Positions 16,252 to 59,928 of a stretch of DNA of 64,000 nucleotides are shown piece by piece. How positions within the stretch are numbered: position 1 is the stretch's first letter; each line of letters begins with the position of its first letter. This stretch comes from Candidatus Marinacidobacterium sp. (GTDB lineage Bacteria; Acidobacteriota; Vicinamibacteria; Marinacidobacterales; Marinacidobacteraceae): NCBI GenBank assembly GCA_965220965.1, contig CBDCRI010000001.1, forward strand, positions 299,303-363,302, given 5' to 3'. The position numbers and the translations under genes were made by a program. The notes under the pieces are model-generated. The model ran no database searches. It had not been told where the DNA came from and saw only the letters and a list, made by a program, of their open reading frames with translations.

Positions 16252-17100
16252 CTAGGACGTCTCCAGCGCATGCTTCGTGTCCCACACCGGAGCCGAACTG
16301 CCGTCCCGCCTCCAACATCGACGCTCGGCCAGCTCCTGAAGCAGGTACGGCATTAGCGCTCGCCGGACACGGATGACGCGCTTGCCCGTTTCAGGAATGC
16401 CGTACTCGTGCTCGTAGCAGAGCCGCTCGTCATGGGAAAGCTCCTTGGAAAGGATGAACTCGCGTCTCTCGAACGAGTTCCAATCGTCGTCCCCATCGAG
16501 TCCGACAAAGGGCGCTTCGTCGTCTCGCCATGCATCGATGGACCGAGCAGGCACGACATCCACGTAGCGATCCTCGAGCGGCCGACTGAACTCGTCACGG
16601 CAACCCGCTCTGTACCCTCGCACGTGATAGCGCCCCCTTGTGCGAACGAGTTCGGATGGCGAAAAGACGAATTCCTGACGGCCGGTTTTGGCTGCGTAGA
16701 CCAGCCTCACTGGCTCCCTGTCGAGCCATGCAGCCACAAATTCCCGAACCGCAGCAGAAGGTGTCGCCGCGGTGAGCGACAAATCGTGTCCTCTGGCCTT
16801 GGGCACGGTCGATGCGAATGGGTTTCCCGGCAAGCCGTTGCCAATCAGCATCAGTGCAAACGCAACGCCCGGATCGATGACTTCGGGCGCCGGTTCAAAG
16901 CGTTCGTCCGGCACCAGACATCGTTCCGAACTCGGCTTATAAGGTGGCAAGAGGCCGCGAACCCGCCATTCGGAGATCAGGTTCCTTGCGGTGCGCTCGG
17001 AAACGCGCGCGAACCTCTGCACATCGCCCGCTTTGAGGCCTCCTCGCCAGAACAGCATGGTTTCAGCAAAACGGCGTGCAACTGCGCGACCAACATTCAT
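16252..17100 (-). CDS. wHTH-WYL domain transcriptional regulator, divergent from the cas operon
   Basis: LFWRGGL...VSERTARNLI HTH; FSPSELVRTRGRYHVRGY WYL core; RRALMPYLL tail. Confidence 0.8.
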   Translation of the reverse strand: MNVGRAVARRFAETMLFWRGGLKAGDVQRFARVSERTARNLISEWRVRGLLPPYKPSSERCLVPDERFEPAPEVIDPGVAFALMLIGNGLPGNPFASTVPKARGHDLSLTAATPSAAVREFVAAWLDREPVRLVYAAKTGRQEFVFSPSELVRTRGRYHVRGYRAGCRDEFSRPLEDRYVDVVPARSIDAWRDDEAPFVGLDGDDDWNSFERREFILSKELSHDERLCYEHEYGIPETGKRVIRVRRALMPYLLQELAERRCWRRDGSSAPVWDTKHALETS

Positions 17101-17126
17101 TACAGATCAAATCTAGGTCAACACCT

Positions 17127-17139
17127 GCAATATTTGCAA
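17127..17139. promoter_or_regulatory. Palindrome between WYL and cas6 (candidate operator)
   Basis: TGCAATATTTGCA in the AT-rich 105-bp divergent intergenic region. Confidence 0.4.
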
Positions 17140-17205
17140 GTTTCACTCTCATGCAGATCACGTATGTTAGTCGGCAGTTCGTGTTGTCCAGAGGATACAT
17201 TTGGG

Positions 17206-17934
17206 ATGCGATTCAGATTGACAGCGCCACGCGGTGAGAGTGCGCGGATTCGGTACTTGGACAGCCTCCACGCTGCACTGATCAACGCTTGGACCGCCAG
17301 TGGAGCGCAGCCCGAGCAATTGTTGGGGGGGCGTGCCGGCAACTGGTCCTTCGGGGCAGTGGGCGCCTCGAAATCCAGTGGCTTCGCGCTCAAGTCCGTA
17401 GTGATTGGGGCGGAAGACGGCGCCTTGGAGCCGTTCCTCCAAGACCTAGCTTGCGAAAACGTTCGAAAATCGTCTGTCAATGGCGACGTCATTGATCTTT
17501 CCGCTTGGGATCTGGCCCCGGAGGAGCTGCCGATTGAGTGTCCTCACGGCAGCTCGGCCGTCCTTCCGGCAATCATGCTCTCTCCGCTCGCCGTGTCCAA
17601 GCGCGGGGAAAAGAGGCGTTGGCATGACGATCTGACGAAGATCGGATCGAACCTCGAGCAGGCGGTCAGCGCGCGTCTGTCGCGACTGACTGGTCGAAAG
17701 GTGGACCTTGAGGTTGAACCCGACCGACTCTACCTTCGAGCGAATCCGAAGCACTCGACGCTGGTTCCTACCCGCACCGCCAGGGGAGCAAGGCCGGCAT
17801 TCGTGATCGGGACGCTTTGCCCGTTGCTCATCCGCGGAAGCATTGAAGACCTCCGTTCAGCCTGGGCACTCGGAATCGGCGAGAAGAATCGCTACGGATT
17901 CGGGTGCATTGGCTACGCAGGACAACGCGCATGA
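17206..17934 (+). CDS. cas6: CRISPR endoribonuclease Cas6
   Basis: C-terminal G-loop GIGEKNRYGFGCI; first gene of the cas operon. Confidence 0.9.
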   Translation: MRFRLTAPRGESARIRYLDSLHAALINAWTASGAQPEQLLGGRAGNWSFGAVGASKSSGFALKSVVIGAEDGALEPFLQDLACENVRKSSVNGDVIDLSAWDLAPEELPIECPHGSSAVLPAIMLSPLAVSKRGEKRRWHDDLTKIGSNLEQAVSARLSRLTGRKVDLEVEPDRLYLRANPKHSTLVPTRTARGARPAFVIGTLCPLLIRGSIEDLRSAWALGIGEKNRYGFGCIGYAGQRA

Positions 17935-20924: not shown

Positions 20925-20943
20925 CCCGAGAGTTTCCAACCAC

Positions 20944-21954
20944 ATGGAGAACATGATGCTCGACCAATTCAATGCGTATCTCAACGACGGCGACCTTACC
21001 GAGGAGGTGACCGCCGCCAACGGCAAGGACACCTACGTGATGCCCAAGCGGCGCAATGCCGGACATGTGGCCATCGCACTCATCCGCGAGATCGTGGCGC
21101 CCACCGTCTTCCGCAATGCGGAGGAGGAAATCACCGACATCGAGGACCGGAAGGGCATTCGCCGCGTGCGGGCGACGCCGAACAAGTTCAAGTTCGGGGA
21201 GCGCGGCCGGGGCCTGTTGGTGCTGCGCGCTTGGAACGTCGGTGGCCGGCTGCCGCAAAACCGCACCGCGGTCGGTCAGCGAATGCCGGTCCGTGAGGCG
21301 TTGGACCTGAACACCCTAGTGTTCGGCGACTCGACCATGTTGGGTACGCGGGTCCTGCCGGTCAAGGCGGCCGTTCAGTACTCCGACGCGCTGAGCACCA
21401 CGCCGTACCGCGAGGCCGTAGGCGAGAGCTTTCACCACCGTGGCGACGAGACCGGAACGTTGTGGGACGCAGAGGGAAAGAAGAACACCGAAAACCTGTT
21501 TACGCGTCACTTCGTGCGACCCGGGACGACGCTGATCCAGATCCTCACCAGCAACGGCCGGCAGCTTCCGCCGATTGGCCTCGACCACCTGCTGCTGAGC
21601 CTTGGCCTCGCCGGCTCTTACGGCGGACAGACCTCGGTGACGGGAGTGAACGTGCGCACGCACATCGCTGGCATCTTCGCCTCGCGTCTTGAGGTGCCAG
21701 TTTCGTCACCTTACGAGTTGCTCCGCAAGGTGCCGGAATCCGGCTCCGCGGACAAGCTGGCAGCCGGGGTGTACCAGGAGATGAAGGAGCACTACCAAAC
21801 GCGCGCCGATGGCGCCGAAGCGTCAGCGCATCAGCGGCAGCTCGTCCATGCGTTCGAGCGCGACGACTCGGAGCTGCGGCGCCGGTATGAAGACGCTGCG
21901 CCCAAGATCGCGGACATGTTCGAGGGGTACTTCAACCCCGAGAAGAAGGCGTGA
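20944..21954 (+). CDS. cas7: Type I-D Cas7/Csc2
   Basis: KFKFGERGRG, LVFGDS, VKAAVQYSDALS, HFVRPGT and YGGQTS motifs. Confidence 0.85.
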   Translation: MENMMLDQFNAYLNDGDLTEEVTAANGKDTYVMPKRRNAGHVAIALIREIVAPTVFRNAEEEITDIEDRKGIRRVRATPNKFKFGERGRGLLVLRAWNVGGRLPQNRTAVGQRMPVREALDLNTLVFGDSTMLGTRVLPVKAAVQYSDALSTTPYREAVGESFHHRGDETGTLWDAEGKKNTENLFTRHFVRPGTTLIQILTSNGRQLPPIGLDHLLLSLGLAGSYGGQTSVTGVNVRTHIAGIFASRLEVPVSSPYELLRKVPESGSADKLAAGVYQEMKEHYQTRADGAEASAHQRQLVHAFERDDSELRRRYEDAAPKIADMFEGYFNPEKKA

Positions 21955-21957
21955 ACC

Positions 21958-22620
21958 GTGGCTGCGGCCCTCTTCCCGTTTAAACTGACTGCGCTGTCGC
22001 CCTGGGCATGGCACGGGCTCGCCGTGCCATCGGGAACCTCGACGCTGAACGATGTCGTCACCGACACCGCAATGGCGTTCGCGACGGCGGCGGCGCTGGG
22101 CATGATGCCCCGTTCGCCATGCCTGCCGTCGGCACCCGACTATCGGAACCACTTGGCCGCCTTGCCCTTCAAGACCGCGCTCTTCACGGGGACCGGCAAC
22201 CGGCTCAACCGGCCATTGGCGCGCCGCCTCAACCTCGATCCGGAGTGCGGGATGCCGAAGAGCGTTCACGATGCACGCAACAGCGGCAACGTCAAGGACT
22301 ACTTCCACATCCACGAGGTCGCGGCGGGAGCCGTTTTCCACGGGAGCTTTCTCCACGCCGATCCGATGGAGCTGGCATTCGAAGCCTATGGCGAGAGGCC
22401 GGAAGGGCTCGTCATCCGGCTGGGTTTGGGGAGAAACGGCATGGGACTCCTGCAGCGATGCGACGAACAGGCTCCCGTACGGCTCAATCTCCATACGGCG
22501 CAACTCTTCGATCCAGACGTCGATCTAAGGGCGGGGCCGTATCGCCTGCACAACATCCAGCCCAGCGAACCGCTGGATCCTGACGAGGCTTTGCGCATCA
22601 CCGCCGGTTGGCATCGGTGA
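21958..22620 (+). CDS. cas5: Type I-D Cas5/Csc1
   Basis: DTAMAFA and IRLGLGRNG G-rich loop; position after cas7. Confidence 0.75.
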   Translation: MAAALFPFKLTALSPWAWHGLAVPSGTSTLNDVVTDTAMAFATAAALGMMPRSPCLPSAPDYRNHLAALPFKTALFTGTGNRLNRPLARRLNLDPECGMPKSVHDARNSGNVKDYFHIHEVAAGAVFHGSFLHADPMELAFEAYGERPEGLVIRLGLGRNGMGLLQRCDEQAPVRLNLHTAQLFDPDVDLRAGPYRLHNIQPSEPLDPDEALRITAGWHR

Positions 22621-22627
22621 ACGGACA

Positions 22628-24682
22628 GTGATCATCCGTTCCCATTCAGTGCGCATGCTGCCCAGCGGCCTGTCGCCAATGCAGCAAAGCTTGCTGGACT
22701 CGGAGCGATTCGTCCGGCTGGTGTCGGCGCCCACGGGCTCCGGAAAGTCCTACGCATTCATGCGCGCGGTGCTGGAGCGCGATGCGCGCGTGCTGTTCAT
22801 CGTGCCCACGAAACGCCTGCTGCAGAACCTGATCGAGGATGCGCGTGAACAGGCGGACGAGCACTGGCGCGATCAGGGCCTCGACGAAGCGCGGCGCACC
22901 GCCTGGACCAATGAGCGAATTGTCGAGTGGTCCGGCAATCAGGCCGACGACGGCGGCGGGAGCCTGGCGGCCAAACGCGCCGGACAGCTCTTTTCGATCA
23001 GCGAAGAAAGAACCGGTGGGGTCATCTTCGCCATCCCTGAGGTGGTGGTCTCGTCGATCTCGGGAATCCGCATCAAGGGGGCAAGCGCAATCAACCCCTT
23101 CGAATTCGTGCACGCCTTCGACCATGTCGTGTTCGACGAGTTCCACACAATCGACGACCGCGCCTTTGGCCTGGCCAGCCTTCTGTCGCTGCTCGCGGTG
23201 ACGCAACGGCAAGGCAAGGTGTCGCTGCTCTCCGCCACGCCGATAGACGTGACCGGAGTTCTTGCCCGGTGCGGCGTGGGGCCAGACAAGATCGAGAGCA
23301 TCCCCGAGGAGATTGTCGATGGGCATCCGCCAGGGCATCGTGAGATACATGGCGACGTGTCGGTGTCCGTAGACCCGCGCACTTTGCCGGAATTGGTCGA
23401 GGCGAACATCGATTCCGTGCGAACCTCGGTCGCGGGCCAGCGCACGGTGATAGTCATCTACGACTCCCTGCAGCGCCTGCGGGAGGACGAGTCGAACCTG
23501 CGAGCGAAGCTTCGCGCCGCCGGCATCGGAGAGGACAGGATTTGCGCCATCAACTCCATCGAAGACTCCAGGCGGGCGCCAGACGAGCCCCGCCGCGGGC
23601 GAAGGTTTGCGGATCCGCGCGACTTCGACGTGCTCATCTGCACATCGACCGTAGAAGTCGGCGTCACGTTCCGCAGCGATCTCATGTTCATGGAGCCCGG
23701 ATTTGGAGAGGCCAGCTTCGTTCAGCGGGTGGGCCGAGTGTCGCGCGGCGCGGACGACGGGCAGGTCTTCGTGTCGTTGCCAGAACGCACGCGCGCGCGC
23801 AACGCATGGACACGACGTGTCGAGACCGTCATTCGGGAGAATGCGGAGCTGACGATTCAGGAGTTCACCGAGAATGTCCTTCGTGACGTTAGAAGGCGGC
23901 TTGAGCCGACGCGCAAGGAAGCCGAAGCCGACTGGTCCGCTCCCAACACCGCACTTTCGTTCTACCGGCGCCCCTCGTGGCGCGGCGCATTCTGGGCGGC
24001 GCTTTTCATTGTCGCGATCCGGCGGCAGAAAATGACGGTACAAAGGGCGGCGCGGGAGCGGCTGCGCGCGCTCTCGCCCAGCACCGTGAGGTTCGTCGAC
24101 GCCAAGATCGGCGACATCATGTCCGTGGATGCAGTGAACAACAACCTGCGCAGCGCGTCGCAGCCACACCGGGCATGGGCGAACGCTCTTCTTGCAAGCG
24201 CTCTGACCTACCGCGACATCGGCCGGACCATCCGTGTTGTCGATCCCGACGGCTGCAGCCATGTGGTGTCGGAATCCTATCTCCGGCGAGCCACCGATGT
24301 TCTAAGGCGGCACATCGTTTCCGACGACAGCGGGGAACCTGTGATCCAATTGCTGTCCCGCAGCCTTCGGGAGGAGGAGAGCAAGGGGTCCTCCGGCCAG
24401 CCGAGGGCGCAGAGGATGACGCTCTACGTCCGTTCCCCGATCGGCGAAGGAGACTTCGCTCTGCCGATCTACGAACGGGAAAGGGGAACCGAGCAGCTCA
24501 ACGTGCGTCTTGTCAAGGAATGGCGCAATCAGTTCGCCAACTTCCTGCCAGCGCCGGGCGAGAAAGACATGCATCCGCGGAAGAAAGTGATGGCCGCCGC
24601 CACGGCACTGGTCGAGGTCATCGGCCGGCCGCCGCATGAAGAGGACTATGAGGATTCTGCAGAAAGCGCGATGTTTGCGTGA
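22628..24682 (+). CDS. cas3: Cas3' helicase without HD domain
   Basis: APTGSGKS, DEFH, SAT, TSTVEVGV and QRVGRVSR; Walker A lies near the N-terminus, leaving no room for an HD domain. Confidence 0.9.
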   Translation: MIIRSHSVRMLPSGLSPMQQSLLDSERFVRLVSAPTGSGKSYAFMRAVLERDARVLFIVPTKRLLQNLIEDAREQADEHWRDQGLDEARRTAWTNERIVEWSGNQADDGGGSLAAKRAGQLFSISEERTGGVIFAIPEVVVSSISGIRIKGASAINPFEFVHAFDHVVFDEFHTIDDRAFGLASLLSLLAVTQRQGKVSLLSATPIDVTGVLARCGVGPDKIESIPEEIVDGHPPGHREIHGDVSVSVDPRTLPELVEANIDSVRTSVAGQRTVIVIYDSLQRLREDESNLRAKLRAAGIGEDRICAINSIEDSRRAPDEPRRGRRFADPRDFDVLICTSTVEVGVTFRSDLMFMEPGFGEASFVQRVGRVSRGADDGQVFVSLPERTRARNAWTRRVETVIRENAELTIQEFTENVLRDVRRRLEPTRKEAEADWSAPNTALSFYRRPSWRGAFWAALFIVAIRRQKMTVQRAARERLRALSPSTVRFVDAKIGDIMSVDAVNNNLRSASQPHRAWANALLASALTYRDIGRTIRVVDPDGCSHVVSESYLRRATDVLRRHIVSDDSGEPVIQLLSRSLREEESKGSSGQPRAQRMTLYVRSPIGEGDFALPIYERERGTEQLNVRLVKEWRNQFANFLPAPGEKDMHPRKKVMAAATALVEVIGRPPHEEDYEDSAESAMFA

Positions 24683-25211
24683 ACTGGCGGAGGAGCGCGG
24701 CCTGCACGGCCTTTACTTCCAGCATGTGGCCTTGTGCCGACGACGTGCCTGGCTGCACCTGATGGGCGCGACGCACGCCGCCCATCACTCTCGCGTCCAA
24801 AGGGGCCTTGCGCTGCATCAGACCGAGAAGCGCCCCGGAGAGGCGCCACGGGGACTTGGCATTGCGCCTGACGCAATCGACTTCAAGCGCCGCGTTGTCA
24901 TCGAAAGGAAGGGGGGCGCCGGAGCAAGCGACGCGGTTTCCAGGCAGGCGCTGTTCTACGCCGCATTCATGACGGGAGCCTCCGGAGAGCACTGGCAAGC
25001 GGAGGTTCACGTCTACGGATCCCGCGCGAAGAGGACCTACCATCTCACTGAGGATGCGCTGGACCGGCTCATCCGCGACGCGCAGGAGAGCCGTGGCTTG
25101 GCAGCCGGGCCGGCGCCACCGGCCCGTCGCATTCCGCTCTGCGAAGCCTGCAGCTGCAATCCCCTGTGCTGGGATGAGGAGCATGATGGACACAGTGATC
25201 GTACCGCGTGA
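24648..25211 (+). CDS. cas4: Cas4 exonuclease
   Basis: LCRRRAWL, PDAID, IERK, QALFY and CEACSCNPLC Fe-S cysteines. Confidence 0.9.
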   Translation: MRILQKARCLRELAEERGLHGLYFQHVALCRRRAWLHLMGATHAAHHSRVQRGLALHQTEKRPGEAPRGLGIAPDAIDFKRRVVIERKGGAGASDAVSRQALFYAAFMTGASGEHWQAEVHVYGSRAKRTYHLTEDALDRLIRDAQESRGLAAGPAPPARRIPLCEACSCNPLCWDEEHDGHSDRTA

Positions 25212-26154
25212 CGCACGGCTGAGCCGTCACGAAAACGCGCTGGTGGTCCTGTCTGACGCTGGGCGCAAGGCGATTCCCCTGCACGGGGTAAAGCACGTCG
25301 TGTGCATGGGCGACGGTTCGATCTCCATTCGCCTGCTCAAGGACATGGGACGAAACGGCATTCGCTTCTCGGTGCTCGATGCAGGGGGACGATTTCTGGG
25401 CGCATTCGAGCCTGAGGATGAAACGCCTTCGGGCCGAGTCCGAGTCGGCCAAGCTTCGCTGTTTCTGGATGAGGCGGCCCGCCTTCGTCTGGCCAAGCTG
25501 ATCGTGGCTGCGCAGGTGAAGTCCATGCGAGGGCTGCTGCAACGCTATCGGCGGAATGGCGTCACCGGCATCGAAGCATCCCTGGACGGCATTCAGAGCG
25601 CCCTCGCCCTGGCAAGTGAAGCCGCCAGCATCGAGCAGCTCATGGGCGCAGAAGGGCATGCTCGCGCATTCCTGCACGATGCGTTCAAGGAGGTTTCAAT
25701 GGATGCCCGCCTCGACCGCAGAGTTCGACGTCCGCCTTCAGATCCCGTCAACTGCCTGATGTCGTTCTTCAACATGCTGCTCTACTCCGCGTGCGCGAGC
25801 GAACTCGCCAAGACCCACCTGGATCGGAGCATTTCGTTCCTTCATGCTCCAGGCACCGGCAGGCGTTCGCTCTCGATCGACATGGCCGAGAACTTCAGGC
25901 CGGTGTTGTCGGACGCCCTTCTGCTGTCCATTTTTCGCCGGGGCCATGCGGACCGGTCATGGTTCGATCGGTCGCCCGGAGTATACCTGCTCAGCGAGAA
26001 GGGGCGAATCAAGGCCACGCAGCGCTTTTGGGGGCGCATCGAGGAAAGCGTCGGCGAACAGACGCTTCGGCAGGCGATCCACCGCCAGTGCCTGTCCTTG
26101 GAGCGCGAGGCGTTGGGAATCGGGCGGTTCAGGCCTTTCGTCTGGCGGGGTTGA
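25183..26154 (+). CDS. cas1: Cas1 integrase
   Basis: LMGAEG, RRPPSDPVNCLMSF, SFLH and SLSIDMAENFRP. Confidence 0.95.
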   Translation: MMDTVIVPRDARLSRHENALVVLSDAGRKAIPLHGVKHVVCMGDGSISIRLLKDMGRNGIRFSVLDAGGRFLGAFEPEDETPSGRVRVGQASLFLDEAARLRLAKLIVAAQVKSMRGLLQRYRRNGVTGIEASLDGIQSALALASEAASIEQLMGAEGHARAFLHDAFKEVSMDARLDRRVRRPPSDPVNCLMSFFNMLLYSACASELAKTHLDRSISFLHAPGTGRRSLSIDMAENFRPVLSDALLLSIFRRGHADRSWFDRSPGVYLLSEKGRIKATQRFWGRIEESVGEQTLRQAIHRQCLSLEREALGIGRFRPFVWRG

Positions 26155-26157
26155 TCG

Positions 26158-26457
26158 ATGTTCGTATTGGTTTCCTACGACGTGCCCGCCAAGCGAACGG
26201 CGATATTCAGGAAGCTGCTGAAGGGGTTCCTTGTGCACGAGCAGGCTTCCGTTTTCATGGGCGACCTGCCGGAGTCGGAACTCATCAAGTTGACTTCCGA
26301 GATATCGAACAAGATTGGACCGGATGATCGGATACTGAAGCTGGTGTGCCGAAACCGCCACAACGTGGAGGTGGAGCAGCTCAGCAAGGACGCCCTCGGA
26401 GGGCCGATGCGCCAGGACGAAGATGCGTGGCACGGAAAAAACTGGTCTGTGCTCTGA
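26158..26457 (+). CDS. cas2: Cas2
   Basis: MFVLVSYDV...EQASVFMG. Confidence 0.95.
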   Translation: MFVLVSYDVPAKRTAIFRKLLKGFLVHEQASVFMGDLPESELIKLTSEISNKIGPDDRILKLVCRNRHNVEVEQLSKDALGGPMRQDEDAWHGKNWSVL

Positions 26458-26586
26458 CCCATTCATTTACGCGCTTGGAAGAAAATCTGCCGATGGCCGG
26501 GCGTCAGGCGCAGTTTTCCAGCCTTTCCGGCGCGCAATGGTAACTACATGCTGCAATAGGGCAACAAAAACCCTATGATTTCGAGG

Positions 26587-28056
26587 GTTCCCAATCCCCA
26601 TGAGGGGTAATGAGGAGGACGTTCGAACGAAGCTTAAGCAGCATACGTTGTTCCCAATCCCCATGAGGGGTAATGAGGAGGTTGTGGAGTACACCCAGAA
26701 CCTAAAGAACATGAGTTCCCAATCCCCATGAGGGGTAATGAGTACTGCGACCCGCCCTATGTCAACAGCGCCGTGAACGGTTCCCAATCCCCATGAGGGG
26801 TAATGAGCCCGTCAACCTGCCGAAGCGCATCCCGTGGTTCAAAGTTCCCAATCCCCATGAGGGGTAATGAGCGGCAGCCTTGCGCTCGCGCTTGGCCGGT
26901 TGGTTCATGTTCCCAATCCCCATGAGGGGTAATGAGACGGACGCATTCACTCAAACCGTCAGCCAGAGCATAGGTTCCCAATCCCCATGAGGGGTAATGA
27001 GAAATGCTGAAAGGCGTGTACAAGTTGCTCAAGGAAAAGTTCCCAATCCCCATGAGGGGTAATGAGGGTTTGTTTCACCAATGAGGAAAGACAATGCTGC
27101 AAAGGTTCCCAATCCCCATGAGGGGTAATGAGTATGCCGTGTACTGGATCAAGCAGGCCGTGCAGCGCAGCGGTTCCCAATCCCCATGAGGGGTAATGAG
27201 TATCCCGCTGTGGCGCATCACGGCGTAAGCCGTCTGACGTCGTTCCCAATCCCCATGAGGGGTAATGAGCAGCGACTTCTGAACCGAACTGCCGGCAAGC
27301 GTTCCCGGTTCCCAATCCCCATGAGGGGTAATGAGGTTCAGGTCGATGGTCATCGCAGCAACTCCAGCAGCACGTTCCCAATCCCCATGAGGGGTAATGA
27401 GTCTAGAGCAAGGAGGCTCTAAGCAATGGAGAACAAAGGGTTCCCAATCCCCATGAGGGGTAATGAGCCAGTTGCACTCAAGTATGAAGGCATCGCCGAT
27501 CCGGGTTCCCAATCCCCATGAGGGGTAATGAGATGCAAACCTTCACTTTCGCCGAAACCCCTGCCGGAACGTTTCCCAATCCCCATGAGGGGTAATGAGT
27601 TGGCCAGCCCTCGGCAATGCGGGTCAAGGATGAGGTTGTTCCCAATCCCCATGAGGGGTAATGAGTTACGGACCGTGCTCTAGTCGCTTCGCGACCCAAG
27701 CCCTTTACCAATCCCCATGAGGGGTAATGAGATGGGAGCAGAGCCACCCGTAGAACTGCAGGACGGACAGTTCCCAATCCCCATGAGGGGTAATGAGGAT
27801 GACAAGCTGAGGCGCAAGGACGCCTGCAAGGGTGGTTCCCAATCCCCATGAGGGGTAATGAGAGGGTGACGTGCCTTATGGCTTTTGGTACTGTGAGACG
27901 TTCCTAATCCCCATGAGGGGTAATGAGGACTTCTGCGCCGACGTCGACGGGGGGCTGACGCGCGTTCCCAATCCCCATGAGGGGTACCCAGTTGAACGCT
28001 GACCGCTTCGAGGTTTGCGCGGCGGCCCGTTCCCACTCCCGATGAGGGGCATGGGT
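26587..28056 (+). CRISPR. CRISPR array of the type I-D system, ~23 repeats and 22 spacers
   Basis: 28-nt repeat GTTCCCAATCCCCATGAGGGGTAATGAG (CCCC-ATGA-GGGG hairpin); spacers ~35-41 nt; AT-richer leader 26458-26586; repeats decay at the cas-distal end. Confidence 0.97.
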
Positions 28057-28391
28057 GGGGCCGGTGGCCGCGTTTATGGGTTATGGCCTTCGTGCGGTTC
28101 TCGCCGCGCCCTACCTCTTGATTGAGGGCAGCCAAGCCGGCGCGGCGGGCACTCGCGGACGGACGACTTTTCGCTGATTGCGGAGGCAATGGCCACCTGC
28201 GTCTCACCGTCGGTCCCCGACCTGCCGCCATCGCCAAGTAGCGCTCAGTTGCGGTTGGAGCGGCGGCTTTGGGGAGAAAATCCGGGGGAAGTCAGCGCTA
28301 ACTTAGGGCGACAGAGGCCTCCGCCCGGCGTAGGAGGCAACTGTGGTAGGCCTTGTGGCTTGGGCACGGAGCATTCCCCGCCGCCGGACGC

Positions 28392-29213
28392 TCAGGGCCG
28401 CATTGCCCCGCTTGCCGGCGGCGCTCCCCGCAGGCACTTCAGGTGGCTCTGCAGTTCGGCGTCGGCCTCCAGGTTGGCCATGAGCGCCAGCAGCACGTCG
28501 TCGAAGTCGCATCTTGGCCAGGCCAGGGTCTCGTCCGCCTCGAAAGTCTCGCGCCACGCCCTCTCCTGCTCCCCGTCGAAGTTGAGCGTCCAATCGTGCA
28601 GGCGGACCTTGTTGTCCAGCGTGATCGCGTCGCCGTGCTTGGCCGTCAGCCAAGCGGCGTCGTAGAGGTCCCTGGCCTGAACGCGCCGGTCATCTCCCAC
28701 CAGCGCGTTCAGCTTGAGGCTGGCGAGCGTGGGCATGTCATAGACGGCGAGCCCGTCCACCATGACGATTCGGTCCTGGTCAAGGCGGGGCTTGCGGATG
28801 CCGTCGCGCACGTTGACGTCGATTTTGGCGCGGAAGGGCTCCGCGAATCCGGCGTGGCGGAACCAAAGGCGGACGTAGCCGCGCCCGTGCTGCTTGACGT
28901 CGAGCCGCTCGACTTCGAGGTCCTTGCGTTGCGCCAACGTCCTGCCGACCCTTTCCACCACGTCGACGCGCCTGGCCACGTCAAGGTCCAAGTCCATGGA
29001 AGGGCGCGTCAGCCCGTAGGCGGCCGCCAGCGCGGTCCCGCCCTTGAGCGCAAACCACCGCTGGCCCTGCGGCGGGCCAAGGGACAGCCCCCGGACGACA
29101 TGGACCAGCACGCCCAGCAGGGCGCGCTCGCGGGGCGAGAGTGCAACCTCCGGCGGCGGCGTGCCGCCGGTCAAGTCGAAAGCCCGTGGCGCATGTGCGT
29201 TCCCTTCTCCCAA
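28392..29213 (-). CDS. AbiEii-family nucleotidyltransferase toxin (start uncertain)
   Basis: LKGGTALAAAYGLTRPSMDLDLD, KIDV, LKLNAL and RDLYD. Confidence 0.85.
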   Translation of the reverse strand: MGEGNAHAPRAFDLTGGTPPPEVALSPRERALLGVLVHVVRGLSLGPPQGQRWFALKGGTALAAAYGLTRPSMDLDLDVARRVDVVERVGRTLAQRKDLEVERLDVKQHGRGYVRLWFRHAGFAEPFRAKIDVNVRDGIRKPRLDQDRIVMVDGLAVYDMPTLASLKLNALVGDDRRVQARDLYDAAWLTAKHGDAITLDNKVRLHDWTLNFDGEQERAWRETFEADETLAWPRCDFDDVLLALMANLEADAELQSHLKCLRGAPPASGAMRP

Positions 29214-29803
29214 TCCGCATCCGGCGACAGGTCGCGCGTCCAGCGGCTCCAGAGTCGCAGCGCCTCCCCCTCAAGGGCCGCCGCCAAGGCGCGCACCAGC
29301 CGGTGGAGGTGCCCGAACTGGGCCTCAGTCCACAGCCACTTGGCCACCGAAGGCCCGTCGTAGGGGCCTGGGAAGCCCGTTGGCCGGCTGGCCAACCAGT
29401 CCCATGCGCCGTCCGCGATGGCCCGGTCATGGCGCGCCGCCCACACGGGAGCCGCCGAGCTCCCCTGCGGGTGCCCGATCAGGCGCAGTGACGGCCGGGC
29501 GTCGAACAGCCGGTCCCAGCCAAGCAGATTTGCCGGCGTGCGCAACGTGAAGCCGTTTCTGGCCTTGTTGGCGAGCAGCATCTCCATCCCGTTTCCGGTG
29601 CGGCCTTCGGCGGGAACGAACCAAGAGCCCTCGGCGTGCCAGTCGCCGCCTGACGGGCAGTCGGGATCGACGAGGTTGAGCGCATGAATGCCGGTCAGGT
29701 ACTGGCTCACGCTGGTCGGGGGAATGCGAACGGGAATGGCCTGCGCCCAGGCCGGCGCGGGCGCATCAGGGCCTCTTCGGGTCGGTTGGTGCCTGTCGGC
29801 CAT
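29171..29803 (-). CDS. Putative antitoxin partner of the AbiEii-like gene
   Basis: YLTGIHALNL...GDWH...ARHDRAIAD; overlaps the toxin start. Confidence 0.6.
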   Translation of the reverse strand: MADRHQPTRRGPDAPAPAWAQAIPVRIPPTSVSQYLTGIHALNLVDPDCPSGGDWHAEGSWFVPAEGRTGNGMEMLLANKARNGFTLRTPANLLGWDRLFDARPSLRLIGHPQGSSAAPVWAARHDRAIADGAWDWLASRPTGFPGPYDGPSVAKWLWTEAQFGHLHRLVRALAAALEGEALRLWSRWTRDLSPDADWEKGTHMRHGLST

Positions 29804-29893
29804 GGCTTCACGGCTCCTGGGCGGTTGGCGCCGGACAGCGTATCACAGCGCTCCTGAAGGGCGCTCCCGCCCAGGCCCGGCCCAAGCGCCCCA

Positions 29894-30883
29894 TCAAGCC
29901 TGCGGCGCGCCCCCGCCGGCCAGCGCTGGCCGCGGACCCGACCCGGGGCGAGGCGCTTCCAGGATCGCCTCGCGGAGCATGCCGAACCGATGTTCGAGCT
30001 CCAACTGGACCGTGCCGGGCAGCAGCAGCTGGTTGCGCAGCCTGGCGGCAGGCAGGTCGAGCACGGTCAGCGGCGCGCCGCCCTCCCCGCCCTTAGCCAA
30101 GCCGATGACGAGGGCCTCCTTGCCGTCGGGCGCGCGCGAGGTCACGCAATCCTCGTCGTGCCAGTCCGCCGTCAGCCGGTCCAGAAGCGAAAGGCCCGTC
30201 TCCCCTGGGCTGAAGGACAGGCCGCGCCCGGGGAGGGCGCGCCGCCAGATGAAGCGGTTGCGGCGCTCGCCAAGGTCCAGCGCGAGCGCCCGAAGGGCCT
30301 TCAGGGCCTGCGAGTCGGGCCCTTCGGACAGGCCGCGGCAGACGGCCAAGGCCATGTGGCCAACGACCTCCCCGGCGCGGCCGGCTTCGCCGGAGCGCAC
30401 CGCCTCCAGCGCCAGCCGGCTGCAGTCCCGCACAACCTGCTTCGCGTACGTCGCTAGCGGCGGCCCGGCGGGATTGGCGTCCCCGGGCTGCGCGAGCTCG
30501 GCCAAGGGGGCCTCCAGCCGCTTGAACAGGGCCTTGACCTCGGCGGCGTAGGCCGCCTCCCGGCCCTTCGCGTCGGCGTCGGAGCCCTCCGGCCCGGCGG
30601 TCACCAACGGATAGCTCATGCGCAGGGCAACGAAGGTCCGCGACCAGTCCGTGAGGGCCGCGGGGGCAGCCCTCAACTCGAGCCGGAGGCCGCCCGCGCC
30701 CTCCATGAACAGGGGGGCGTTCCGGGTTCCCTTGGGCATGGTGAGAAACTTCGCCTTGGCCTTGATGGCCCGCTCGACGAGGGCGCGTCCCTCGGCCAGC
30801 CCCTCTTCGGGCGCGGCCGCCTCGCCGAGGACGGACGCCCGATACCCATACTCGGACGCCAAGGCCTTGCGAACCATGCTCAT
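29894..30883 (-). CDS. Hypothetical protein
   Basis: Long ORF with high GC3; TACAAT box upstream. Confidence 0.6.
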   Translation of the reverse strand: MSMVRKALASEYGYRASVLGEAAAPEEGLAEGRALVERAIKAKAKFLTMPKGTRNAPLFMEGAGGLRLELRAAPAALTDWSRTFVALRMSYPLVTAGPEGSDADAKGREAAYAAEVKALFKRLEAPLAELAQPGDANPAGPPLATYAKQVVRDCSRLALEAVRSGEAGRAGEVVGHMALAVCRGLSEGPDSQALKALRALALDLGERRNRFIWRRALPGRGLSFSPGETGLSLLDRLTADWHDEDCVTSRAPDGKEALVIGLAKGGEGGAPLTVLDLPAARLRNQLLLPGTVQLELEHRFGMLREAILEAPRPGSGPRPALAGGGAPQA

Positions 30884-31251
30884 CTCGGTCTTTCCCTGGC
30901 GGCTCGGCTGGCCGTTCCGGCGCATTGTAGTGGCTCCCTGCCGAACCGGCCCGCCTGGGCCCCTGGCCCGCGGACGCACGGACGTTCGCCGAGGCCCCGC
31001 TCAAGGATCAGCCCCGCGGCTCGGAGCAGGCGGGCGGCATGCCGAGCCGTCCATGCGCTGAGCGGACAGGCCTCGGCCGGGCGTTGCGGCTTTCCCTAGG
31101 CGACGGATGCCTCGAGCGGCGCGAGTCAAGGACTTGACGCTGGGCCTTCGCAACGTGTTGTAGACTGGGCGCCATTGGCCGTTTCGCCCCATGGTAGGAG
31201 ACGACATCGAATTGACGAAAACAACTGCGGCTCAGGCGCTTAATCGATAGA

Positions 31252-31645
31252 GGCTGCCCCGCCCGTGCGGGGATGACCCCTCAGAAGCCTAGATTTTCAT
31301 CACTTTCTGATAGGCTGCCCCGCCCCTGCGGGGATGAACCCAAACAGGCAGCCACGCACTTCGACGAATTGGCGGCCGCCCCGCCAGCGCGGGGATGGCC
31401 CTTGGAAACGGCGGGGTTGATCACTCGGGTGGAGGATGGCCCCGCCTGCGCGGGGATGGACCCTTCGGCGTGTGTTTCGACGGGCTTTTCATCGAGTTAG
31501 CCCCGCCTGCGCGGGGATGGACCCTCGGGTATTCCTCGTGAAATGCTTTTGGATCAATTAGCCCCGCCAGCGCGGGGATGAACCCACAGCCATGTTGCGA
31601 CCGGCCGAAAGCTGGCGATGGCGCCGCCCATGCGGGGATGGGGCC
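31252..31645 (+). CRISPR. Orphan type I-E-like array A (7 repeats)
   Basis: 29-nt repeat GTTRGCCCCGCCnGCGCGGGGATGGACCC, 61-nt period, ~32-nt spacers. Confidence 0.9.
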
Positions 31646-32177
31646 AGGCTTCTGTTGAAGCCTCGGCGAGGGGTCGCCGCGTGCCTGTCAGAGCGGGCGC
31701 GGACCGCAAAGCGGCCGCGCCGCATGCTTCGGTTCGCGGCCGGCGTGCATGCCACGTCCCCACCGGGTTTTCGCGAGGCGCCAGAGGCAGGCATGGGAGG
31801 CCGCTGAACCGTCGCTTGCCGCCTATGCCTGCCTCGACGTAAAGCCTGGGAAGCCCGCCCCTAAGTCAGGGAAGGCCCGGCGGTGGGGGCCCGACTTTCG
31901 GCGTGCCTGTCGCGCTCAAGGATCAGGGTGCCGGTCCGGGCGCGCTCCCACCCAGGATGGCCCATCCATGCCGTGACCGGGGAGGCTCCGTCCGATGACG
32001 CGGCCGGCTCGGCGCCGGCCTGCCACGCCGACCGATGGCGGTGGCGGCGGTGAGGAGCCGATCCCTGGCGCTGGGCCCACGCCAGGTGTTGTACACTGGC
32101 GGCGTTGCGCCGTTCATGGGGGAAATCGATTTAACGGATCAGACATTGTGAGTTTCAACAAGGACTTAATGGATAGG

Positions 32178-32390
32178 GTCGGCCCCGCCAGCGCGGGGAT
32201 GGGCCTTTGCCGCCGCACATGTCGATGAGGCGCGAGCCGTTAGCCCCGCCAGCGCGGGGATGGTCCCCGAGGTGAGACGGCCATTAGGTCGGAAGAAGAA
32301 GTTAGCCCCGCCCGAGCGTGGATGGCCCCTCGATTCGGACGCAGCTTGGTCTAATTGCTTCGTTAGCCCCGCCAGCGCGGGGATGGAGCG
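32178..32390 (+). CRISPR. Orphan type I-E-like array B (4 repeats)
   Basis: Same repeat; preceded by the shared leader ...gatcagacattgtgagtttcaacaaggacttaatggatagg. Confidence 0.9.
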
Positions 32391-32821
32391 AGCCTTCTGT
32401 TGCAGCCTCGGCGAGGGGAGGCTCTGTACCTGCCAGAATGGGCACGGACCGCGCGGATCACAAACAATGTCCGCCTCGACGTCAAGCGAAGGAAGCCCGC
32501 CACGATGTCAGGGAAGGCACGGCGGAGGCGGCCCTGACTCTCGGCGTGGCTGTCGCGCTCAGGGATCAGGTTGCCGGTCCGGGCGCGCTCCCACCCAGGA
32601 TGACCCGTCGATGCCGTGACCGGGGAGGCCCAGTCCGATGACGCGGCCGGCTCTGCGCTGGCCTGCCACGCCGACCGATGGCGGTGGCGGCGGCGAGGAG
32701 CCAAGCCCTGACGCCTGGCCTTCGACATGTGTTGTACACTGGAGGCGCGCCGTTCATGGGGGGAGGATATCGAGTTAACCGATCAGACATTGTGAGTTGC
32801 AACAAGGGCTTAAGGGATAGG

Positions 32822-33277
32822 GTTGGCCCCGCCAGCGCGGGGATGGACCCCTCTTGAACACCATCGGCGCAACGCTCAAGCCGTTGGCCCCGCCAGCGCG
32901 GGGATGGACCCGCTATGTTGGGGAAGGGTGTCTCGTCGAGAAGGTTGGCCCCGCCTGCGCGGGGATGGACCCCTCTTGGCAAAGATGAATTTTGCCACGC
33001 AATCGTTGGCCCCGCCTGCGCGGGGATGGACCCTGCATTCGACGGCAGCTTGCTCTCATTGCTTCGTTGGCCCCGCCAGCGCGGGGATGGACCCCTCATT
33101 GAAATGATGACCAGTGACTCCACCGAGCTTGCCCCGCCCGAGCGGGGATGATCCCTTGAGAAAGTGGCCAGCGACGCCAATGCTCCAGTTGGCCCCGCCC
33201 GCGCGGGGGAGAGCCCGTTGCATGTTGACGCCGCGATCGCGAGCGAAGCTTTGCCCCGCCCACGCGGGGATGGAGCG
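32822..33277 (+). CRISPR. Orphan type I-E-like array C (8 repeats)
   Basis: Same repeat and leader; the leader-proximal repeats are best conserved. Confidence 0.93.
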
Positions 33278-33821
33278 AGGCTTGTGTTGCAGCCTCGGCG
33301 AGGGGAGCCTCTCCAACTGCCAGAACGTGCTCGGATCGCTTGGATCGCAAAGCGGCCGCGCCACAAGCTTCGGTTCGCGGCCGGCGTGCATGCCACGTCC
33401 CCACCCAGGTTTTCGCGAGGCGCCCGAGGCTGGCTTTGGCGGCCGCTGAGCCGTCGCCTGCCGCCAATGCCTGCCTCGACGTCAAGCGAAGGAAGCCCGC
33501 CCCCGGAAGTCAGGGAAGGCCGGCGGTGGGGCCCCGGCCTTCGGCGTGCCTGTCGCGCACAAGGATCAGGTTGCCGGTCCGGGCACGCTCCCACCCAGGA
33601 TGACCCGTCGATGCCGTGACTGGGGAGGCCAAGCCCAATGGCGCGGTTGGCTCGGAGCCGGCCTGCCATGCCGACCGATGGCGGTGGCGGCGGCGAGGAG
33701 CCAACCCCTGACGCCTGGCCTGCGCCATGTGCTGTACACTGGAGGCGCGCCGTTCATGGGGGGAGGCTATCGAGTTAACGGATCAGACATTGTGAGTTGC
33801 AACAAGGGCTTAAGGGATAGG

Positions 33822-34512
33822 GTTGGCCCCGCCTGCGCGGGGATGGACCCACAAGAACCGCCTATGATGGATCTTGAGGCCGGTTGGCCCCGCCTGCGCG
33901 GGGATGGACCCTCGTGGAACATCCGCGTTGGGTAAGCGCGCGTGTTGGCCCCGCCTGCGCGGGGATGGACCCTTTCTAAACGGAAGTTGTGTCGCAGTTG
34001 TGTGGTTGGTCCCGCCGGCGCGGGGATGGACCCGAGAAGGGAGCGACATCAGGTCGGAAGAAGAAGTTAGCCCCGCCTGCGCGGGGATGCACCGGAGTCC
34101 AAGACCGCCTGTGTGCCTGCAGCGCGATTGCCCCGCCCGAGCGGGGATGGGCCGTTGGATGAGCAGGTCCTTTCCCGCAAGGCAAAGTTGGCCCCGCCCA
34201 TGCGGGGATGGCCCGCATTCAAAAACCGCATGCGCGCCTGCGTTGCGCCGGCCCCGCCCTTGCGGGGATGGTCCCTATGACGATGTGACGCTGCAGACAG
34301 CAGAGGAGCGTTGGCCCCGCCTGTGCGGGGATGAACCCACTCCTCGGTCCGCTTTGCCCACTGCACGGCTTCGCTGGCCCCGCCCAAGCGGGGATGGCCC
34401 TTTGTCCAAGACCGCATGCGTGGCTGCAGCGCCTTGGCCCCGCCCGTGCGGGGATGATCCCGGCGCGCAGTGGATGGCGCCTGCCTTCGTCGGTTTGGCC
34501 CCGCCCGCGCGC
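33822..34512 (+). CRISPR. Orphan type I-E-like array D (11 repeats plus a degenerate terminal one)
   Basis: Same repeat; leader nearly identical to that of C and exactly 1000 nt downstream of it. Confidence 0.93.
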
Positions 34513-34705
34513 TCCCCGCGTCCGCTTCGGACCCGCGAAAGCTGCGGCTGCGCCACGCGCCGCCGGAGAAGGCCCTTGCTGGCAAAGGCCTCCCGGCAGC
34601 CGGCCGGGACCGCCCGTGAACCCGAACCCGCCATGGCCGCCTGCGGGCGCGAAGGCGGCGGGATTTGCTTCAATCCGCCCTGAACACTTCCGGAGCGGAC
34701 GCCCG

Positions 34706-35878
34706 ATGAACGACGCCGACATCCTCCCCGCCCCCCGCATCGCCGATGCCTCCGACGCCTTGCACAGCTGGCTGCGGTCGCACCTTGCCGTCCCCACCAA
34801 GGCGAGGATGTGGGGCGTGGAGGGAACCTTCACCCCGCCGCTGTCCAGGGCGGTCTACGGGGACGGCGGCGCCATCCTCTGCGTCTGCGACAGGCGCGCC
34901 CGCCCCGCCTTCTGGCAGGTGCGCATCGACAGCAAGTGGCGCATCGGGACCGAGCCCGGCCGCGACCACGCCGCCCTCGACTTGGGCAAGGCCATCCGCG
35001 AGATCGCGGCCAACTTGGCGGCTGAGTTCGCGCCCCTGGACACCGAGGTCGAGGCCGCGGAGGAGAAGGCCCAGCAGGCGGACGACGAAATCGATTGGAT
35101 GCGGGACTGCGACCCGGAGGCGGCCTTCATGGACCCAGGCCTTCCCAGGGACGCGCACGGCAACTTGGCGATCGACATCAGCGACGGCGTGATGTTCTGG
35201 CGCGGCGGCGCGACCGCCGCGCCGACGGCCGTGCGCCACTGCGCGTTCGGCGAGGCGGGCGTCGGCGAGCTCGACGTGATGCACCACGGGATCGTGGAGC
35301 CGGTCAGGATCGGGGGCGTCCTAGTGATGCCCCGCGTCGCGGACGCCTCCGAGGCCGAGCACCTGCGCCTGCAGGCGCTCCTGTGCGCGCCTCGGGAGGG
35401 GCGCCTTTGGGAGCACTCCCGGCCGGTCAAGTTCACGCCAGCGCTGTCGCGCGCGGTCTACGGCGACGGCAAGGGCCTCATCGGCATCACGACCATCAGC
35501 GACCGGCCGCGGTACTGGCTGGTGCGCATCGACAGCCAGTGGATGGTGCCGGGCCGCAGCTGCGACGCCGAGCGCCGGCTGCCCCCCGACGCGCCGGACG
35601 TGGGCGAGGCCATGGAGGGCATAGAGGTGAACCTCATCGCTGAGTTCGGCTCCTCCGACCCGGAAGCCTACCTCGACGATGAGATCGCCGACTGCGACGA
35701 CTGCTGCGGCCGCGGGTGCGACGCCTGCGCCCACACCGGCTACGGGCCCGAGGGCACGCCGCCGGACTTCCCGGCCATCGATCTGACCGACGGGACCAGC
35801 TGGTGGCGCGAGGACTACCCGGCGCCGTCCGCGGACGCCCGGCCGCGCAAGGCGCGCCTTCCCGCCCCCGCCGTCTAG
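34706..35878 (+). CDS. Hypothetical protein with two copies of an FTPPLS-VYGDG-RIDSxW domain and a C-terminal Cys cluster
   Basis: Internal repeat; CDDCCGRGCDAC; TTGCTTCAAT box at 34665. Confidence 0.8.
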   Translation: MNDADILPAPRIADASDALHSWLRSHLAVPTKARMWGVEGTFTPPLSRAVYGDGGAILCVCDRRARPAFWQVRIDSKWRIGTEPGRDHAALDLGKAIREIAANLAAEFAPLDTEVEAAEEKAQQADDEIDWMRDCDPEAAFMDPGLPRDAHGNLAIDISDGVMFWRGGATAAPTAVRHCAFGEAGVGELDVMHHGIVEPVRIGGVLVMPRVADASEAEHLRLQALLCAPREGRLWEHSRPVKFTPALSRAVYGDGKGLIGITTISDRPRYWLVRIDSQWMVPGRSCDAERRLPPDAPDVGEAMEGIEVNLIAEFGSSDPEAYLDDEIADCDDCCGRGCDACAHTGYGPEGTPPDFPAIDLTDGTSWWREDYPAPSADARPRKARLPAPAV

Positions 35879-38692: not shown

Positions 38693-39925
38693 ATGTGGAT
38701 GTGGGAGAGGCCGGACTGGCCGGAATTCAGGTTCGAGGAGGGTCGCTTGGCGGACGCCATGAGGCGCTTCGCGGAGGCGGACGCGGGTCTCGTCGGCCGC
38801 TCGGAGGGCTTCGGGGACGAGTGGCGCCGGGAGCTGGCCGTCGAGCTGATGTTCGCCGAGGCGCTGGCGTCGCACGCCATCGAGGGCGAGGCGCTTGACA
38901 GCGAGTCGGTGCGCTCGTCGCTGCTGCTGGCCCTGGGGGGGCTGTCGGAGAGCCCGCGCCGGGACCCCCGGATCGCCGAGGGCGGCGCCGTCGCCCTGAT
39001 CCTGGACGCGCGGCGCCATTGGGACCAGCCCCTGACCAAGCAACGGCTGTGCGCCTGGCAGTCGATGGCGCTCGCCGGCCGGGCGAAGCCCACTCTGGAG
39101 GTCGGCGACTACCGGAGCGGCCCGGAGAAGATGGGCATCGTCAGCGGCAACGGCAGCCTGCACGGGTTCAAGCCCATGCGCGTGCACTACGAGGCGCCGC
39201 CCTCCGACCGCGTGCCCGCCGAGATGGCCCGCTTCCTTGAGTGGTTCAACGCCTCGCGCGGGCGCATCAACGGCCTGGCGCGCACGGCGGTGGCCCACCT
39301 CTGGTTCGAGAAGATCCACCCGTTCGACGACGGCAACGGCCGCGTCGGGCGGGCGCTGGCGGACCTGGCGGCCTCGCAGGCGCTCGGGCGCCCGACGCTG
39401 TCGTGCCTGGCCACGGCCATCAACCAGGACCGCGACCCCTACTACCGCGCCCTGGAGCAGGCCGGCCGGGACGGCATGGACGTCAACCCCTTCCTCGACT
39501 ACTTCGCGGGCGTGGCGCTGCGCGCCCAGGAGATCGCCCTTCGGGAGGTGCGCTTCGTGCTCGGCAAGGCGCGCTTCTTCAGCCGCTTCGACGCCCGGCT
39601 CAACGCCCGGCAGCGCAAGGCGGCGCTGCGCGTCTTCGCCGAGGGCTCCAAGGGCTTCGCCGGCGGCCTGTCGCGCAACAACTACCAAGCCATCACCAAG
39701 GCCTCCAGCGCCACCGCCACCCGCGACCTCGCCGACCTGGTGCGCATCGGCGCCATGACATCGGCCGGCGAGGGCCGCAGCGTGCGCTACGCGCTGGCGA
39801 CCGACCCGCCCCAGCACCTGCTGCTGGAGGCGCTCGCGGACGGCGCGCCCGCCGGCGCCGCCCCCGAGGCCGAAGCGCACGGCCAGCCGCGGCGCCGGTC
39901 GAGGAGCGCCTCCCCAGGCCCCTGA
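38693..39925 (+). CDS. Fic family protein (DUF4172 N-terminus, C-terminal HTH)
   Basis: MWMWERPDWPEF, SHAIEGE inhibitory motif, HPFDDGNGRVGR catalytic motif and SSATATRDL HTH. Confidence 0.92.
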   Translation: MWMWERPDWPEFRFEEGRLADAMRRFAEADAGLVGRSEGFGDEWRRELAVELMFAEALASHAIEGEALDSESVRSSLLLALGGLSESPRRDPRIAEGGAVALILDARRHWDQPLTKQRLCAWQSMALAGRAKPTLEVGDYRSGPEKMGIVSGNGSLHGFKPMRVHYEAPPSDRVPAEMARFLEWFNASRGRINGLARTAVAHLWFEKIHPFDDGNGRVGRALADLAASQALGRPTLSCLATAINQDRDPYYRALEQAGRDGMDVNPFLDYFAGVALRAQEIALREVRFVLGKARFFSRFDARLNARQRKAALRVFAEGSKGFAGGLSRNNYQAITKASSATATRDLADLVRIGAMTSAGEGRSVRYALATDPPQHLLLEALADGAPAGAAPEAEAHGQPRRRSRSASPGP

Positions 39926-59864: not shown

Positions 59865-59928
59865 GTGCACCCGACGAGACGCGGCCGAGCCGACCGCCCG
59901 GCACCCCAACCACCCAAGGAGAGGTCCC

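Follow-up and report, generated by a model that had tools for sequence, protein, structure and literature searches.

According to the available text of a 2026 survey in Microlife, multiple CRISPR arrays arise through duplication of arrays or array fragments, horizontal transfer and splitting, and two arrays even out leader-proximal expression; the survey treats arrays statistically, and tandem amplification of the leader itself is not described in that text (PMC12814883). In Escherichia coli, the CRISPR-II locus (CRISPR2.2 and CRISPR2.3) lies at a distance from the cas operon, comprises either a single array or a pair with 0.5 kb between them, and occurs also in strains without cas-E genes; the leader is described, in the accessible portion of the report, as adjoining CRISPR2.3 (PMC3903273). 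In the type I-B system of Leptospira interrogans serovar Lai, as far as the available account goes, seven tandem arrays are each followed by a conserved 77-bp segment, with inter-array regions of 112–158 nucleotides (nt), a single leader that drives one long pre-CRISPR RNA and a differing flank at the first array (PMC9372919). Here we analyse a 64,000-nt stretch of DNA from Candidatus Marinacidobacterium sp. (Acidobacteriota; hereafter the window) and show that it contains four genuine type I-E arrays, each with its own complete leader. We propose, with a probability of about 0.65, that these are duplicated leader–array modules whose CRISPR RNAs (crRNAs) would serve a distant Cascade complex, and that the modules are now frozen.

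The locus is an unusual arrangement of a known system, not a new kind of system. It resembles E. coli CRISPR-II in having I-E arrays distant from the cas operon and spaced by about 0.5 kb, and differs from it, on the available description of a leader beside CRISPR2.3 only, in having four modules and a full three-motif leader at the end of every inter-array unit (PMC3903273). With the L. interrogans Lai cluster, within the accessible part of its description, it shares head-to-tail arrays of one repeat type and a conserved post-array segment, whereas here the arrays are of type I-E, the units measure 431–544 nt and each carry a leader copy, and the arrays lie 170 kb from Cascade (PMC9372919). 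A search of a partial literature library turned up no account of tandem amplification of a leader together with its array.

The window forms the last 64 kb of contig C2 (CBDCRI010000001.1; 363,302 bp), one of the two contigs (C1 and C2) of a 3.25-Mb genome of 71–73% G+C; the assembly is 94% complete, a scope that applies to all genome-wide negatives below. A mismatch scan with the consensus GTTGGCCCCGCCTGCGCGGGGATGGACCC, combined with a repeat and spacer read-out, finds 30 copies of this 29-nt repeat within positions 31252–34461, in four head-to-tail blocks (Table 1). Their repeat numbers of 7, 4, 8 and 11 plus a truncated twelfth agree with the 7, 4, 8 and about 12 given in a preliminary description of this DNA, made by a model from the letters alone. 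Repeats start 60–63 nt apart, mostly 61, and the spacers are all distinct (27 of 27), 20 of them being exactly 32 nt long (range 31–34); across all I-E arrays of the genome, 40 of 50 spacers are exactly 32 nt (range 31–36). These values are those of type I-E arrays, which have repeats of about 28–29 nt, 32-nt spacers and a 61-nt period. The minimum-energy fold of the repeat is an I-E-type hairpin with a CCCCGC/GCGGGG stem and a tetraloop, and all six stem pairs are kept in 52 of the 56 I-E repeats genome-wide (28 of the 30 in the window), giving the G+C-rich hairpin followed by a handle that typifies I-E repeats. The handle, 8 nt long and generated by Cas6e, is one that we take to be ATGGACCC, by analogy with E. 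coli. Across the 56 repeats, stem positions 6–11 and 16–21 and the ATG that follows are 95–100% conserved; conservation is only 38–82% at positions 2–4, 13–15, 25–26 and 29, which fall in the 5′ end, in the loop and in some of the handle. Repeat size, period and fold together assign the arrays to type I-E. An Rfam search (E ≤ 1, positions 26000–35500) matched no I-E repeat and gave a weak match of the neighbouring type I-D repeats to CRISPR-DR37; membership of a curated repeat family is not what defines the I-E subtype. The array repeat is unrelated to that 28-nt I-D repeat, as had been noticed at the outset.

The arrays are separated by units of 431, 532 and 544 nt, within the 430–545 nt given in the preliminary description, with pairwise identities of 84.4% (AB and CD), 86.6% (AB and BC) and 90.5% (BC and CD). 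Every unit begins, after a degenerate terminal repeat, with a trailer of about 60–75 nt and ends in a full copy of the leader. Aligned with one another, the units show indels of 1, 2, 3 and 4 nt, and a stretch of about 113 nt is deleted from unit BC, on which grounds we regard the units as non-coding. A protein-coding role was considered as a candidate and is ruled out by the 1–4 nt indels, and no Rfam family was found inside the units. Neither the genome nor the 60 relatives searched contain a further copy of the unit; against those relatives, unit CD gave chance G+C-rich matches only, plus a single repeat match in one of them. Units that are 84–91% alike and confined to this locus bear out the earlier proposal that the leader–array cassette was amplified locally.

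Table 1. Coordinates of the type I-E modules and of neighbouring and distant features. Positions are those of the window unless preceded by C2, which marks contig coordinates.
Feature	Position	Strand	Description
Array A	31252–31645	+	7 repeats, 6 spacers; repeats 1–3 with GGCTG/GGCCG 5′ variant; repeats 4–6 with GATGG or GTTAG
Array B	32178–32390	+	4 repeats, 3 spacers; terminal repeat ends GGAGCG
Array C	32822–33277	+	8 repeats, 7 spacers; repeats 1–5 differ only at loop position 13; terminal repeat ends GGAGCG
Array D	33822–34522	+	11 repeats (to 34461) and a truncated twelfth at 34494–34522; repeats 1–3 identical; trailer unlike that of A–C
Unit AB	31646–32177	+	532 nt; shared trailer (31646–31707), ~113-nt segment also in CD, leader B
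Unit BC	32391–32821	+	431 nt; same trailer and leader C; lacks the ~113-nt segment
Unit CD	33278–33821	+	544 nt; trailer and leader D
Leader A	31000–31251	+	Diverged from B–D; TGTAGACTG at 31159–31167; CTTAA at −13
Leader B	End of unit AB	+	TGTACACTG at 32090–32098; CAAGGACTTA at 32159–32168
Leader C	End of unit BC	+	TGTACACTG at 32733–32741; CAAGGGCTTA at 32803–32812
Leader D	End of unit CD	+	TGTACACTG at 33733–33741; CAAGGGCTTA at 33803–33812
Type I-E Cascade operon	C2: 155.5–160.3 kb	Same as arrays A–D	cas8e-cas11e-cas7e-cas5e-cas6e; ~170 kb upstream of the arrays
Array E2 leader	C2: 163450
Array F	C2: 190.8 kb		14 repeats; leader at C2: 190769
Two-repeat I-E remnant	C2: 283.7 kb	Opposite
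Type I-D operon	16408–26457	+	Complete: cas6d, cas10d, cas7d, cas5d, cas3d, cas4, cas1, cas2
Type I-D array	26587–27991	+	22 repeats of 28 nt; spacers 35–41 nt
AbiEii-type toxin gene	28392–29803	−	Nucleotidyltransferase toxin gene with an overlapping upstream open reading frame
Upstream flanking gene	29894–30979	−	Strong coding signature
Downstream flanking gene	34706–35878	+	Strong coding signature
Fic/DOC gene	38693–39925	+	Protein with DUF4172

Beyond arrays A–D, the I-E arrays of the genome comprise E1 and E2 beside Cascade, array F and a two-repeat remnant. Flank alignment and motif counting show that the six leaders in front of A, B, C, D, E2 and F carry TGTA[ACG]ACTG at −88 to −103 from repeat 1, a motif with only seven occurrences over the two strands of the genome, of which these leaders account for six. 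All six also have CTTAR at −12 or −13 and ATAG at the junction with repeat 1. Outside B–D the leaders are too diverged for BLAST, yet the three motifs are common to them; leaders A and B, for instance, have BLAST-detectable similarity over about 50 nt only, at 80%. From its position about 90 nt upstream of the array and its conservation, the TGTAMACTG box is a promoter candidate. A general promoter and terminator scan returned no promoter-like and two terminator-like sites, not above shuffled sequence, and two degenerate leader-junction motifs scanned in the JGI metagenomes gave no match each.

A motif just before repeat 1 of leaders B–D, CAACAAGGRCTTA, had been noted and likened to the binding site of integration host factor (IHF). 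It is present in B, C and D and absent from leader A. The likeness stands for the CAA-N4-TTR core (CAAGGRCTTA, at −19 in B–D) but not for the full consensus, which those leaders lack. The exact IHF consensus, WATCAANNNNTTR, has ten matches in the genome, only one of which falls on C2, at −21 in the leader of E2, the array adjacent to Cascade; leaders A and F are without the CAA half of the core. The genome has three HU/IHF-family genes, the best scoring 84 bits against a himA cut-off of 120. A role for IHF at these leaders is plausible on this evidence.

CRISPR repeats often break assemblies, and the preliminary description had named a single misassembled array as one outcome that would overturn its account. 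We see no such misassembly. Two public runs, belonging to two studies, yield short-read contigs that agree with the window without any difference and bridge the unique junctions between array A and unit AB, across all of array B with both flanks (32021–32601), between array C and unit CD, and between array D and the downstream gene; the runs have depths of about 100 and 2–3, and the deeper one may be the source of the assembly itself. The same contigs break at the identical repeats inside C and D, so that the spacer order there is that of the assembly alone. Because the unit copies differ by 9–16% and the contigs bridge their junctions with 0 differences, the four modules are not an artefact, and the ~113-nt deletion and the 27 distinct spacers likewise speak against the expansion of one or two arrays by repeat misassembly, an explanation that is largely refuted and that we consider extremely improbable. 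A third public run contains contigs, at depths of 15–60, with near-identical I-E repeats and other spacers over the window interval 31250–34340, together with pieces at low depth that match leader D exactly; that run may include a relative, at strain or species level, whose spacer set is another one.

The spacers themselves carry traces of duplication. Among 1,225 spacer pairs, eight score 9–22, whereas the maximum among 4,000 shuffled pairs is 7. Related pairs link arrays of the window (B2 with D4, B3 with C4), and array D holds diverged copies within itself (D5, D10 and D7); elsewhere on C2, spacer 2 of E1 is related to spacer 7 of E2, F4 to F10 and, weakly, spacer 6 of E2 to F10. Several of these pairs share rare variants of the flanking repeat, such as GATGATCCA in repeat 2 of E1 and repeat 7 of E2, which favours duplication over separate acquisition. 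A common degenerate terminal repeat, with a common trailer, closes each of the arrays A, B and C and is absent from the end of D, the last array, as a crossover model predicts. The same architecture recurs beside Cascade, where the decayed array E1, which has no leader, is separated from E2 by 529 nt that finish with a leader.

These features suggest a route by recombination. An ancestral order of array, trailer, leader and array would have been amplified by unequal homologous recombination between the CRISPR repeats of the two arrays, each crossover copying a block that runs from the terminal repeat through the trailer and leader to the first repeat. A hybrid middle array would result, ending in the terminal repeat and trailer of the upstream array. 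The modules would then have diverged by acquisition at each leader end, by duplication of internal repeat–spacer blocks and by deletion.

Leader-proximal spacers are unique to each array, and the related spacers B2 and D4, and B3 and C4, lie farther from the leader. Close to the leader, the repeats of any one array are uniform and set it apart from the other arrays (repeats 1–2 of A, 1–5 of C, 1–3 of D and 1–2 of F), which is the pattern that arises when every integration copies the first repeat. Unique spacers and array-specific repeat variants near the leaders accord with the independent acquisition proposed earlier, and each module probably acquired spacers separately in the past. The window spacers average about 0.56 G+C compared with 0.73 for the contig, pointing to foreign DNA, as expected. 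Searches for their targets found no match outside the arrays in the own genome (blastn-short) and none among 50,697 phage records (E ≤ 1). Of 72,556 plasmid records, 28 were matched, in every case either at repeats belonging to I-E arrays of Streptomyces, Roseomonas and others or in short G+C-rich stretches; 400 genomes of the class gave array-to-array or short G+C-rich matches only, and an exact search of IMG/VR with one leader-proximal spacer gave none.

The preliminary description found no cse1, cse2 or cas6e in the window and supposed a host or distant I-E Cascade. Both statements hold: the only Cas6e and Cas7e matches of the genome lie outside the window, in an operon of five Cascade genes about 170 kb upstream on the same contig (Cas8e 384 bits, Cas7e 322 bits; Cas11e, Cas5e and Cas6e also matched), which supplies, outside the window, the Cascade genes of a whole I-E system. 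All five are open, full length relative to their profiles and carry the host coding signature. The search of contig and genome for I-E cas genes that had been recommended thus yielded the Cascade genes but not cas1, cas2 or cas3, the remaining components of a whole I-E system, in this assembly. For Cas1, PF01867 matches the I-D cas1 only, as does TIGR03638 (E 0.008); for I-E Cas2, PF09707 matches nothing in the genome; and for Cas3, TIGR01587 and PF18019 match only the Cas3 of a type I-G system, on the chromosome, and generic helicases, the I-G protein being the only HD-domain Cas3 in the genome. With the operon of the closest relative as query (Cas7e 67% identical), tblastn matched Cas8e, Cas11e, Cas7e, Cas5e and Cas6e in the genome and neither Cas1e nor Cas3e at E 1e-4, the identity of these two query proteins having been confirmed. 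The interval from cas6e to array E1, where cas1 and cas2 are usually found, is occupied by a PIN-domain gene and by a gene for a prepilin peptidase on the opposite strand. E. coli K-12 retains cas1, cas2 and cas3.

A Cascade of this type without Cas3 recalls the Cas3-less I-E variants whose Cascade carries a Cas5–HNH protein, as presented in the accessible text of that report (PMC11794572). Like them, this genome has an I-E Cascade and no Cas3 was found for it; unlike in that account, Cas5e here aligns with its 230-position profile over the full length and has no additional domain (PMC11794572). Family searches of the Cascade open reading frames (ORFs) reported no HNH or other nuclease fused to Cascade, and with no extra domain on Cas5e and no HNH in these ORFs, no replacement nuclease is evident. 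Upstream of Cascade, within C2: 146000–165000, lie an 836-amino-acid ORF without a family match, a UvrD/GajB-like helicase, an SspD-like or PAPS-reductase-like ORF and a NUDIX ORF, a group that could constitute a defence system of its own.

The genome encodes type I systems of three subtypes (I-D, I-E and I-G) and contains twelve arrays, and the only adaptation module is that of the I-D system. The I-D gene set is complete by PADLOC (Cas10d 743 bits, Cas3d 414, Cas6d 227, Cas5d 198, Cas4d 149, with Cas7d, Cas1 and Cas2 also matched) and its operon holds the only Cas1–Cas2 found in the genome. Could the four I-E leaders still be fed in trans, by the I-D Cas4–Cas1–Cas2 about 5 kb upstream or by an unassembled I-E module? 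A promiscuous integrase, Cas1–Cas2, serving the arrays of another type is described for Listeria seeligeri in the available part of one report (10.1101/2024.10.25.620265). The I-D adaptation genes are the sole ones among the three systems and adjoin the arrays, the repeats of C and D nearest their leaders are identical, as recent integrations would leave them, and the completeness of the assembly is 94%. Against this, neither the repeats nor the leaders of I-D are related to those of I-E, and I-D spacers of 35–41 nt indicate an integrase ruler that misfits I-E spacers of 31–36 nt (32 nt in 40 of 50), which makes borrowing from I-D unlikely; overall we hold supply in trans to be very unlikely. 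The idea that several leaders multiply acquisition sites is therefore not upheld for the present, as no I-E cas1, cas2 or cas3 was found in the assembly: present-day acquisition at the I-E leaders is doubtful because I-E cas1 and cas2 are not found and the sole Cas1–Cas2 belongs to a system with spacers of 35–41 and not 32 nt. Two features of the I-D locus stand apart. Its 28-nt repeat is short for type I-D, and the cas6d ORF as listed encodes 508 amino acids, of which the Cas6d profile covers residues 267–505 only; cas6d may have a later true start or an N-terminal extension.

As to function, transcription of the arrays from their leaders would start at the TGTAMACTG-box promoter candidate, Cas6e would cleave the RNA at the hairpin conserved in the repeats, and the resulting crRNAs would load into the Cascade encoded about 170 kb upstream. 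Transcription and processing are in this form our inference. At present, Cascade could at most bind targets unless a nuclease comes from elsewhere. As the assembly is without I-E cas1, cas2 and cas3, the arrays are most likely frozen memories in which adaptation is inactive. The conserved hairpin and cleavage site and the five intact Cascade genes argue that crRNAs are still made and bound, and extra predicted crRNA output from each leader is plausible.

The same data could describe a decaying remnant, in which arrays and Cascade are neutral leftovers that drift and recombine with no current role. The failure to find I-E cas1, cas2 and cas3, the occupation of the cas1–cas2 position by unrelated genes, the degenerate distal repeats and the decayed, leaderless E1, the drift of related spacers by 12–25% and the lack of a target for any spacer would all fit such an origin. 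Neutral decay is hard to reconcile with the repeats themselves, where stem and ATG are 95–100% conserved over 56 copies while other positions vary widely, which points to selection on processing, with the five open, full-length Cascade genes bearing the host coding signature, or with three motifs kept in six leaders otherwise too diverged for BLAST. We therefore judge that remnant status is unlikely, and prefer duplicated modules whose crRNAs would still reach Cascade.

Several points weigh against this preferred reading. A simple sigma-70 scan found no consensus promoter, and no protospacer was found for any spacer in the genome, phage, plasmid and class-genome searches. Family searches can miss genes, PF09481 having missed the Cas8e that PADLOC found, and because the assembly is 94% complete and in two contigs, I-E cas1, cas2 and cas3 could lie on an unassembled replicon. 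Related spacers differ by 12–25%, more than the leaders (9–16%), and some of these pairs could have been acquired independently, at one and the same site, from invaders related to each other. Under the simple model, the order in which spacers are shared (B2 with D4, yet B3 with C4) calls for additional deletions or for more recombination.

Comparison with relatives indicates how the arrangement stands within the class. A Cas7e scan of GTDB contigs yielded one locus, at 42% identity, and the best Cas7e match among 400 genomes of the class is 67% identical. In the I-E loci of 15 class-level genomes (16 stretches, examined with a simple array detector), arrays are seen in 13; five loci have more than one array, with gaps of only 25–124 nt in two of the five, and related 400-nt upstream flanks, repeats aside, were found in none of the five.

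The array cluster is located within a defence island. The AbiEii-type toxin gene lies between the I-D array and array A, its overlapping ORF being a likely antitoxin, and the Fic/DOC gene lies downstream of the arrays. The genes directly flanking the cluster matched no Pfam family (E ≤ 0.1) and had no usable ESM Atlas neighbour. At both ends of C2 (window positions ~58000–64000 and C2: 1–6000) paralogous genes recur in tandem about every 1.3 kb, head and tail being 85–87% identical; the contig break probably falls inside a tandem gene family, and the replicon may be circular. On C1 (1450900–1465000), three arrays at about 1457.6–1459.1, 1461.3–1461.8 and 1464.2–1464.9 kb include blocks, as long as four spacers, that are duplicated exactly.

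The locus bears on the question of why genomes maintain more than one array of a given type: here the leader itself has been copied three times in tandem. The locus suggests a simple mechanism, crossover between the repeats of neighbouring arrays, with which the terminal repeats and shared spacers agree. A further and speculative possibility, which we hold to be improbable, is that cassettes multiplying by such crossover are kept for the extra promoter and the highly expressed leader-proximal slot that each brings, and that a Cascade-only I-E system is under selection, either because it silences mobile elements without Cas3, by binding alone, or because it obtains new spacers through the I-D Cas4–Cas1–Cas2. 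The four modules offer a natural test case for asking if additional leaders increase the output of crRNA or divide acquisition among them. With a Cascade-only I-E system and 56 repeats most of which keep the hairpin, the strain would be useful for learning what role a Cascade lacking both Cas3 and integrase may have when it retains a large memory.

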